This document shows, one piece after another, positions 27,508 to 28,908 of a DNA stretch of 64,000 nt (within the stretch, counting starts at the first letter, position 1; every line of letters begins with the position of its first letter). Source of the DNA: Actinomycetes bacterium. GTDB lineage: Bacteria; Actinomycetota; Acidimicrobiia; Acidimicrobiales; JAKAOS01. A program made the position numbers and the translations under genes. The notes under the pieces were generated by a model, which had not been told where the DNA came from, searched no databases, and saw nothing but the letters and a program-made list of their open reading frames with translations. The stretch is from positions 728-64,727 of the forward strand of contig JAJYPS010000001.1 of assembly GCA_021795215.1 (NCBI GenBank), given 5' to 3'.

Positions 27508-28884
27508 TCAGGTCCGCTGCACCTGACCAGCCCCGGCGGACCACACCACGTCGCCTGCGATTAGGACGTCCTGACCGACGACGGACACCACCCGATCGTC
27601 CAAGCCGATCGCCCCCGCGACGCTGTCGATCCCCAGCGCGCCCACGGCGTCCACCCCTTCCCCGAGGATGCGCGGCGATACTCCGACGACCAGCCTGTCC
27701 ACCAGACCAGAGGCCAGGAACGAAGTAATGACGCGGCCTCCACCCTCCACGAGGACGGACGTGACTCCGAGGCGGCGCAGCAGCAGCAGCGTTTCCGCCA
27801 ATGCCACTCCTCCGGGGCCGGGGGGAGCGTGGTGCACTGCGACACCCAACCGTTGCAGCAGCCGTTTTCGATCTGGATCGCAGTCGGCGAGGCTGACCAC
27901 GATGGTCCTGCCGCCGTCGGCGAAGATCCTCGCGTCGGACGGACTGCTGAGCGTGGAGTCCAGCACCACCCGGGCCGGCGAGCTCCCTTCGACCAGCCTT
28001 ACCGTCAGCTGTGGATCGTCCGTCTCGACGGTCGCCCGTCCCACCAGCACCGCGTCGCAGCTCGCCCGCAGCGAATGCGACACTGCCCGCTCCTCCTCCC
28101 CGCTCACCCAACGGGAGTCACCGGTTGCGGTGGCAAGGCGACCGTCCAGGCTCTGCGCGTACTTGAGCAGTACGTAAGGACGATCCGGACGTGCCCTGAC
28201 CGTCCCCATGAGGCGGCGCACGTCCGCTCCTTCGGCCGTCAGCTCGGGTAGCGCCCCTCCGAGAGGTTCCTGGTGGCCCATGCGGGACTCTTTTGTCCGG
28301 AGGTACTCGTGACTCCGGGCATGGGGGACCACAGGGACCGGAACTCTCTCCGCCACCCTCACCCCACATGCTTCTAGTGCCAGGGCCTTGTCCGGGTTGT
28401 TGGTCAGCAACCGGACCGACTGCACCCCGAGGCTGGAGAGCACCTGGGCCGCCGTCGTGTAGCTCCTGGCGTCTGCCGGCAGACCGAGGTGAAGGTTGGC
28501 GTCCACCGTGTCCGCCCCCAAGTCCTGCTCCGCATAGGCCATCAACTTCTTGACCAACCCGATGCCCCGGCCCTCGTGCCCGGTCACGTACAGCAGCACC
28601 CCTCGACCTGCCGCAGCTATCGAACGCAACGAGGCCTTCAGCTGGGAGCCGCAGTCGCAGCGGAGAGAGCCGAACGTGTCGCCGGTCAGGCACTCCGAAT
28701 GCAGCCGGGCCAGGACGTCTCGGCCGTCCCCCATGTCACCCAGGATCAGTGCGACGTACACCAGCCCCGGCGGCACGTCGAACGCTACGGCTTTGAACTC
28801 GCCGAACGGAGTGGGCAACTTGGCCGACGCGGACGCCCGGAGCTGCTCGCCTGCCTGCCCGTCCAGGGGGGAGAGAATCGACAT
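27508..28884 (-). CDS. fusion protein: GTP cyclohydrolase II (RibA) plus RibD C-terminal-type pyrimidine reductase
   Basis: N-terminal half: [30 protein letters not shown]. C-terminal half: [62 protein letters not shown]. No deaminase or DHBP-synthase domain is present. Confidence 0.85.
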   Translation of the reverse strand: [458 protein letters not shown]

Positions 28885-28908
28885 CACCCCGCCCTACCCT
28901 CGTCGCCG

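Follow-up and report, generated by a model that had tools for sequence, protein, structure and literature searches.

We examined a gene on the minus strand (27508..28887) of a 64,000-bp stretch of actinobacterial DNA (contig JAJYPS010000001.1 of assembly GCA_021795215.1, positions 728 to 64,727; here referred to as the window), which encodes a GTP cyclohydrolase II (GCH II) fused to a RibD-type pyrimidine reductase. Judged from sequence comparisons, this fusion is probably bifunctional and stands at the start of a specialised pathway that begins from GTP and lies outside housekeeping riboflavin synthesis, since it is linked to non-riboflavin genes and never to rib genes, and since its two halves fall in clades of their own. 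The fusion family is already catalogued in databases, and what is notable is the conserved orphan module around it.

The gene reads through 459 codons without a stop, from a GTG start at 28887 to a TGA stop at 27508-27510, and an alternative ATG start at 28884 would give a protein of 458 aa. The GCH II domain spans residues 15-206 (28270..28845), as delimited by Pfam, NCBIfam and alignment to the structures 2bz0 and 4i14, and the RibD_C reductase domain spans residues 236-444 (27556..28182). They are joined by a linker of only 29 aa (residues 207-235; 28183..28269), in which a deaminase domain cannot fit. The Pfam scan of the protein detected PF00925 (GTP_cyclohydro2, residues 20-183, E 4.3e-59, 199.2 bits against a cutoff of 23.3) and PF01872 (RibD_C, residues 237-442, E 4.5e-46, 157.6 bits against a cutoff of 24.1) and nothing beyond these two, with neither PF00383 nor PF00926. 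Among the NCBIfam models, ribA (TIGR00505; 216.3, cutoff 205.85) and ribD_Cterm (TIGR00227; 171.2, cutoff 150.15) were passed. The full-length RibD model (TIGR00326; 136.3) stayed under its cutoff of 156.35, and so did the RibBA model (NF006803; 272 bits, cutoff 569), of which only positions 210-403 of 417 were matched. The original prediction of a GCH II-RibD_C fusion with no deaminase and no RibB is thus borne out by both databases, and every motif that it quoted is present in the 459-aa translation.

The fusion gene is separated from the divergent gene by a gap (28888..28908) of 21 bp, or of 24 bp, the distance given previously, if translation starts at ATG 28884. This leaves no space for a riboswitch, and no consensus promoter or terminator was detected within the gap. 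An Rfam search of the 64 kb returned no family at gathering score, and hence no flavin mononucleotide (FMN) riboswitch. When the proteins of four canonical actinobacterial rib operons were searched against the window, the fusion gene was the sole match, and a CDA-type deaminase motif (HxE...PCxxC) was found in no reading frame of the window. The earlier statement that neither another rib gene nor an FMN riboswitch lies nearby therefore holds across the whole window.

Neighbour-joining trees were built with the fused halves and with RibBA and RibD proteins from operon contexts. In both trees the fused halves formed clades apart from the operon proteins, the clade of the core GCH II having a bootstrap of 99/100 and that of the reductase one of 82/100. 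The phylogeny suggested earlier as a check on the GCH II half thus placed it in a separate clade from operon RibBA, and the enzyme is of the Tyr type, which is not predicted to form a formamidopyrimidine.

The GCH II half aligns end to end with E. coli RibA (2bz0; E 1.3e-55) and with M. tuberculosis RibBA (4i14; E 1.3e-64). Its Cys66, Cys77, Cys79 and Arg141 correspond to the zinc ligands Cys54, Cys65 and Cys67 and to Arg128 of E. coli RibA, and Tyr118 (codon 28534-28536) corresponds to Tyr105. All of these residues are unchanged in 122 relatives, including the tyrosine in 122 of 122. This tyrosine is reportedly needed for deformylation, and Spoonamore et al. in 2006 are said to have found that Met in its place in SCO6655 leads to the formylated product FAPy. 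Since Tyr118 is kept, the normal diaminopyrimidine product, rather than FAPy, is predicted. The GCH II half therefore appears catalytically complete and should convert GTP to 2,5-diamino-6-ribosylamino-4(3H)-pyrimidinone 5′-phosphate (DAROPP), formate and pyrophosphate. It shares the zinc cysteines, the arginine and the tyrosine with RibA and with the GCH II half of RibBA, and it differs from them in being fused to a reductase, in its separate clade and in its non-riboflavin gene context.

The fusion had been described as unusual, but its architecture turned out to be common in public databases. Among 5.8 billion proteins, the best 120 matches all carry both domains in one protein of ~430-520 aa; their hosts are mostly Geodermatophilaceae, Frankiaceae and other Actinomycetota, and they are annotated as "GTP cyclohydrolase II RibA" or similar. 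A 100% match came from a metagenome-assembled genome (MAG) labelled Actinomycetota bacterium; after it, the closest relative shares 75% identity, and the others share about 60%. Both domains were also found in 45 of the best 150 representatives of a library clustered at 50% identity, down to ~34% identity. A scan of reference genomes with the fused-family alignment matched mainly canonical RibBA loci, with at least two true fused loci among the matches listed.

Other fusion architectures occur among the proteins of the representative library, as in P0135, P0139 and P0129. P0139 has a CDA deaminase between the GCH II and the reductase, whereas P0135 carries a HAD phosphatase ahead of the two domains. 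In another variant the order is reversed, with the reductase preceding the GCH II, and there are variants with unassigned linkers of 70-150 aa, several of them 510-650 aa in total length, in which the linkers might be degenerate deaminase domains. Our literature search found no functional study of the fusion or of the module around it.

In the window, the fusion gene is divergent from four co-directional genes on the plus strand. The first, at 28909..29970, encodes a 353-aa dehydrogenase of the MDR superfamily, BchC/threonine-dehydrogenase-like, and is a core partner of the module. BchC is its closest family in NCBIfam, and in a structure-sequence search its nearest structures were threonine, butanediol, sorbitol and galactitol-1-phosphate dehydrogenases. 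It has "SGISTGSE" in place of the zinc-Cys motif, and its identification as a zinc alcohol dehydrogenase (ADH) was rejected because a Ser stands instead of the catalytic Cys. No in-frame start other than ATG 28909 retains an N-terminal strand that is conserved in all homologues; automatic gene calls on identical contigs start the gene at the equivalent of 29035 and cut this strand off. With the start at ATG 28909 and a gap of 21-24 bp, leaderless transcripts or promoters within coding sequence are implied.

The second gene (29974..30375), also a core partner, encodes a 133-aa T-fold protein of the SCO6650/"PTPS-IV" family. Its family profile matched SCO6650 (3d7j) over the full length (E 4.7e-34), far ahead of PTPS and QueD. 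The window protein has His21, His34 and His36 at the zinc-ligand positions, the last two within an HSH motif, and it keeps Glu118; in the PTPS family this Glu anchors the 2-amino-4-oxo ring. From the catalytic triad of PTPS/QueD it lacks the Cys and the His, and its assignment as a normal PTPS or QueD was rejected for this reason. FGPAQ has been given as the PTPS-IV signature (PMC5445326); the window T-fold has PPPEG at this place, and the same position reads FGSAQ in L086 (one of the loci listed below), FGPAS in the Dormibacteria locus and FGPAQ in SCO6650.

The remaining two genes encode GT4 glycosyltransferases, here denoted GT4a (30372..31511, 379 aa) and GT4b (31508..32617, 369 aa). Convergent on them lies a gene for a 268-aa class I S-adenosylmethionine-dependent methyltransferase (32671..33477, minus strand), which is a possible accessory of the module, as a methyltransferase flanks the module in most lineages.

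The same set of genes, comprising the fusion, the MDR dehydrogenase, a SCO6650-type T-fold, one or two GT4 genes and often a methyltransferase, was found in Actinomycetota, Dormibacterota and Rhodothermota (Salinibacter). The loci are that of the window (L001), those of Geodermatophilus (L004), Dormibacteria (L005, from a MAG), Brevibacterium (L006) and Salinibacter (L089 and L090), and L085-L088. In 10 inspected loci from the three phyla the fusion is linked to the dehydrogenase, the T-fold and GT4, except that Salinibacter has no GT4, and in none of them does ribB, ribE, ribH or a deaminase gene stand beside the fusion. On the Geodermatophilus chromosome and four other contigs the module lies beside the fused orthologues, sometimes rearranged, and its flanks are always unrelated. 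In a neighbourhood network published in 2017, PF00925 and PF01872 were likewise neighbours of the PTPS-IV cluster (PMC5445326).

A census was then made of 80 loci from metagenomes, with the dehydrogenase as the sole anchor and with classes assigned by domain-only BLAST. The T-fold gene was present in 54 of the 55 loci with sufficient downstream DNA. Of the eligible class-1 loci, 25 of 26 had the fused gene, and GT4 was present in 15 of 15. Class 2 (14 loci) combines the ADH and T-fold genes with a ~820-aa CDP-alcohol phosphatidyltransferase, LPG_synthase_TM, a methyltransferase, GT4 and a stand-alone Tyr-type GCH II, and has no reductase in any of its loci. Tyr is at the switch position in 47 of 47 census sequences. 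No CDA deaminase was detected in any census locus, nor in or near the ~90 module loci altogether. The H...HxH pattern and the anchor Glu are kept in nearly all census T-folds, and we rejected the idea that the subtype of the T-fold goes with having a reductase, because H..HxH occurs in both classes. One locus, L094, stands out twice in the census: no other has a fused reductase of the Thr type, and no other has ~10 kb of DNA downstream in which a T-fold gene could not be detected. It contains Methyltransf_21, the dehydrogenase and two GT4 genes.

The second architecture, in which membrane genes accompany the dehydrogenase and the T-fold, was seen in L145, L153, L163, L166, L147, L159, L161, L091 (Streptomyces), L006 and L088, and it suggests that the product is attached to lipid or envelope in those lineages. 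The window has no homologue of CDP-alcohol phosphatidyltransferase or of LPG_synthase_TM, so these genes were rejected as parts of its module. The Streptomyces locus consists of CDP-OH_P_transf, ADH, a SCO6650-like T-fold, GT4, a methyltransferase-like gene, LPG_synthase_TM and a GCH II of the Met type; a reductase is missing. Compared with the S. coelicolor SCO6650-SCO6655 region, the window module has the MDR dehydrogenase, the SCO6650-family T-fold, GT4 and GCH II in common and lacks the two membrane genes. The Streptomyces cyclohydrolase stands alone and has Met at the switch position (KLRAMALQ), whereas that of the window is fused and has Tyr118. The T-folds differ too, since that of Streptomyces misses the third zinc His ("HGA") and has FGPAQ, and the window protein has HSH and PPPEG.

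The reductase half matched B. subtilis RibG (2b3z/3ex8) with an E value of 7e-30. The RibG residues K151, S167, T171, R183, D199, R206 and E290 correspond to K242, S258, S262, R274, D290, R297 and E381 of the window protein; in the family alignment position 258 is Ser or Ala, and S262, R274, D290, R297 and E381 are invariant in the 122 relatives. As every substrate-binding residue of RibG is kept, reduction of a 6-ribosylamino-pyrimidine 5′-phosphate is expected. This half should thus be a complete, NADPH-dependent reductase of the RibD/RibG type that yields the 6-ribitylamino form, and compared with B. subtilis RibD/RibG, the GCH II of the window takes the place of the N-terminal CDA deaminase.

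Which pyrimidine it would reduce depends largely on one position. The best PDB match of the reductase half was 6p8c (E 6e-31), and the archaeal and fungal DAROPP reductases (MjaRED 2azn; 6p8c; Rib7 4ha7) have the same fold and are likewise free of a deaminase. They carry Asn (archaea, as in MjaRED and 6p8c) or Thr (fungi) in the column where the window has Lys242 (codon 28162-28164), which aligns with Lys151 of BsRibG and Lys152 of EcRibD. The small polar residue that archaea and fungi have at the position of the C2 substituent is thus absent from the window protein, and the archaeal DAROPP-reductase model TIGR01508 scored 131.5, under its cutoff of 186.45. At this specificity position, which has experimental support, bacterial enzymes that reduce the deaminated AROPP have been described as having Lys, and the DAROPP-reducing enzymes as having Thr (fungi) or Asn (archaea); the T35K exchange in Rib7 shifts its preference to AROPP about 3-fold (PMC3631187).

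Lys is invariant at position 242 among the 122 relatives, and of the 40 complete class-1 fusions of the census 36 have Lys, three have Arg and one has Thr. Lys is likewise present in P0139, the one fusion observed to contain a CDA deaminase of its own. The position varies over a wider range: Ser or Thr occupy it in 25 of 45 representatives of the fusion superfamily, in which His, Gln and Asn were also seen, and in the orthologous modules it is Thr (Salinibacter), His (Dormibacteria) or Gln (Brevibacterium). These substitutions in the modules of other phyla, together with the lack of a linked deaminase and with the anchor for a 2-amino ring in the T-fold, call for caution against over-reading Lys242. 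What results is a conflict at the level of a single residue, in which a Lys/Arg determinant for a deaminated substrate is found inside a module that never encodes a deaminase.

Direct reduction of DAROPP, the predicted product of the GCH II half, is in our judgement a serious prospect that falls slightly short of even; it is plausible for the window clade, yet it is not what the specificity residue predicts. Reduction of the deaminated AROPP, supplied in trans, is a possibility that we would put somewhat lower, and any other possibility is unlikely. The original prediction had interpreted the fusion as a dedicated enzyme outside housekeeping riboflavin synthesis, following the archaeal and fungal order of reactions. 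The first part is supported by the linkage to the module and by the separate clades. The archaeal/fungal order is no more than plausible, given that the window clade carries the bacterial Lys (or Arg) at the specificity position and that the protein scored under the TIGR01508 cutoff.

As the entry point of the module, the fusion would, if its two domains act in succession, lead from GTP through DAROPP to a 6-ribitylamino-pyrimidine 5′-phosphate. The dehydrogenase, of a polyol/secondary-alcohol type, would then oxidise the side chain of this compound, the T-fold enzyme would process the product, and the GT4 enzymes would glycosylate it to a glycosylated pyrimidine or pteridine metabolite. Reduction followed by oxidation at C2′ would amount to an Amadori rearrangement, after which ring closure could give a pterin resembling dihydroneopterin phosphate, the type of substrate that PTPS-family T-folds use. 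This sequence of reduction, C2′ oxidation, ring closure, T-fold reaction and glycosylation is the detailed chemistry that we prefer, and it is offered tentatively, being doubtful as a whole. The broader proposal that GTP is turned into a pteridine by the fusion, the dehydrogenase and the T-fold without any need for GTP cyclohydrolase I, and that the T-fold and GT4 enzymes complete a glycosylated pteridine or ribityl-pyrimidine, is a rather improbable one at present.

Two known systems offer parallels. In Chlamydia, RibA and TrpF bypass GTP cyclohydrolase I, and the GCH II product is turned into a pterin by Amadori isomerisation and closure of the ring (PMC4161248). A similar diversion of the GCH II product may be proposed, by analogy, for the reductase and the dehydrogenase of the window; however, Chlamydia uses one isomerase, with no redox pair, T-fold or glycosyltransferase. 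The cyanobacterial pteridine glycoside pathway, with PTPS, sepiapterin reductase and the tetrahydrobiopterin glucosyltransferase BGluT, matches in its kinds of parts, namely a T-fold of the PTPS family, an oxidoreductase acting on the side chain and a GT-B glycosyltransferase, and GT4b matches the BGluT structures 5ze7 and 9v0l (E 5e-13 and 6e-8), although it matches generic GT4 better. That pathway starts from GTP cyclohydrolase I, and the window T-fold is without the catalytic Cys and His of PTPS.

Several observations weigh against the successive, pteridine-forming scheme. Lys242 is the bacterial determinant for a deaminated substrate, which speaks against the two domains being directly coupled and against a product that keeps the 2-amino group, as a pterin does. 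In class 2 and in Streptomyces the GCH II stands alone and a reductase is missing, so reduction followed by oxidation cannot be general, and the preferred chemistry is weakened both by class 2 and by the Met-type Streptomyces enzyme. SCO6655 is said to make FAPy, which reportedly would be unable to close a ring through N5. GT4b is only weakly similar to tetrahydrobiopterin glucosyltransferases, and MshA/BshA/SPS-like GT4 score higher.

The alternative that survives best is that the two domains do not act consecutively. A deaminase located elsewhere, such as the housekeeping RibD domain or, conceivably, the T-fold, would make AROPP, and the Lys-type reductase would convert it to 5-amino-6-ribitylamino-uracil 5′-phosphate (ARIPP), which would be built into a glycoside of the lumazine, deazaflavin or ribityl-uracil type; the fusion would then serve co-expression, as in RibBA, and not channelling. 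We consider this possible but, on balance, doubtful. It fits the rule of PMC3631187, given the correspondence of Lys242 to BsRibG Lys151, its invariance in the relatives, the Lys or Arg in 39 of the 40 complete class-1 fusions, the Lys of P0139 and the score of TIGR01508 under its cutoff. A role of PTPS-IV in archaeal F420 synthesis, for which a 2016 review cites unpublished work (PMC5041015), and a HAD phosphatase that is fused or adjacent in some variants, resembling an ARIPP phosphatase step, would also agree with it. However, no deaminase was found in or near the ~90 module loci, and the module has no lumazine synthase or Fo synthase. Moreover, the Thr, His or Gln of orthologous modules shows that the residue is not fixed for the pathway, the effect of its mutation is only about 3-fold, and the T-fold keeps the Glu that anchors a 2-amino-4-oxo ring in the PTPS family.

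Returning to the reading of the fusion as the opening enzyme of a specialised pathway, a housekeeping role would make it the sole GCH II and pyrimidine reductase of the organism, with the deaminase and the other rib genes scattered. Both domains look fully active from their sequence, the GCH II half is 55-61% identical to housekeeping actinobacterial RibBA, as it is to many fused relatives, and the gene lies in the conserved origin-proximal core of the chromosome, all of which would be in keeping with such a role. It is nevertheless very unlikely, because neither ribB, ribE or ribH nor a deaminase gene ever accompanies the fusion, unlike most RibBA loci from reference genomes (chiefly Actinomycetota, among the matches listed), in which RibD lies ~2 kb upstream. 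The tight and specific linkage to non-riboflavin genes in three phyla, the clades distinct from operon RibBA and RibD and the lack of an FMN riboswitch in the 64 kb also speak against it. In addition, according to a 2026 review (PMC13151069), the homologous module of Streptomyces coexists with separate GCH II paralogues of the riboflavin type, and of the three RibA paralogues in S. coelicolor, one serves a function that has nothing to do with making flavins.

That a frameshift, a chimeric assembly or read-through merged two separate genes has a negligible chance and is favoured by nothing except that the source is a MAG, in which such errors occur, since the identical full-length 459-aa protein is found on three independent assemblies, the 75%-identical orthologue and more than 120 further relatives keep the single open reading frame (ORF), complete isolate genomes included, the frame signal of GC content at third codon positions is unbroken along the ORF, and the GCH II and reductase halves co-evolve as clades.

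The window belongs to the origin-proximal core of the chromosome and is not a mobile island. Its origin region (50795-63998) contains parB, parA, rsmG, jag, yidC, dnaA (56062-57762), dnaN, recF, gyrB and gyrA, and dnaB and ssb lie at 33-37 kb. In the origin region the GC content falls from ~0.68 to ~0.60, and the GC skew changes sign near 57-58 kb, which places the module ~27 kb from oriC.

Downstream of the fusion, in 26756-27564, gene callers disagree on the strand, with a 176-aa ORF called on the minus strand of the window and a gene on the opposite strand in L085, the locus of the 75%-identical relative. The plus-strand ORF (26899-27564, 221 aa, no Pfam match) is better conserved (53% over 201 aa, E 3e-48) and would overlap the 3′ end of the fusion convergently by 57 bp. 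Further along, 17054-26798 (minus strand) holds a LysR regulator, followed by an apparent cluster for respiration and detoxification of sulfur compounds. This cluster includes a fused 4Fe-4S/NrfD protein, a 971-aa molybdopterin oxidoreductase, a NarJ-like chaperone, a metallo-beta-lactamase-rhodanese fusion (persulfide-dioxygenase-like) and a Pyr_redox_2 flavoprotein (sulfide:quinone-reductase-like). An ApbE flavin transferase beside a NuoF-like FMN-binding protein (8306-11377), a myo-inositol-1-phosphate synthase (39266-40396) and a PIG-L family deacetylase (868-1749) are encoded on the plus strand; none of these genes adjoins the module, and no link to it was found.

The core of the module can now be defined as the MDR dehydrogenase, the T-fold and a GCH II, which may or may not come with the reductase, and two classes of architecture are separated. 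The automatic annotation of these genes as "RibA" or "riboflavin biosynthesis" is probably wrong at the level of the pathway, which touches metabolic reconstructions as well as predictions of riboflavin-derived MR1 ligands in Actinobacteria, and the unfused form of the module is found in essentially all Streptomyces. Should the route from GTP to a pteridine prove true, a module present in nearly every Streptomyces and widely distributed among soil Actinomycetota would gain a product. This would explain SCO6650 and SCO6655, two proteins studied in 2006-2008, and in class 2 and in Streptomyces CDP-alcohol phosphatidyltransferase and flippase-like proteins would link the product to the membrane.

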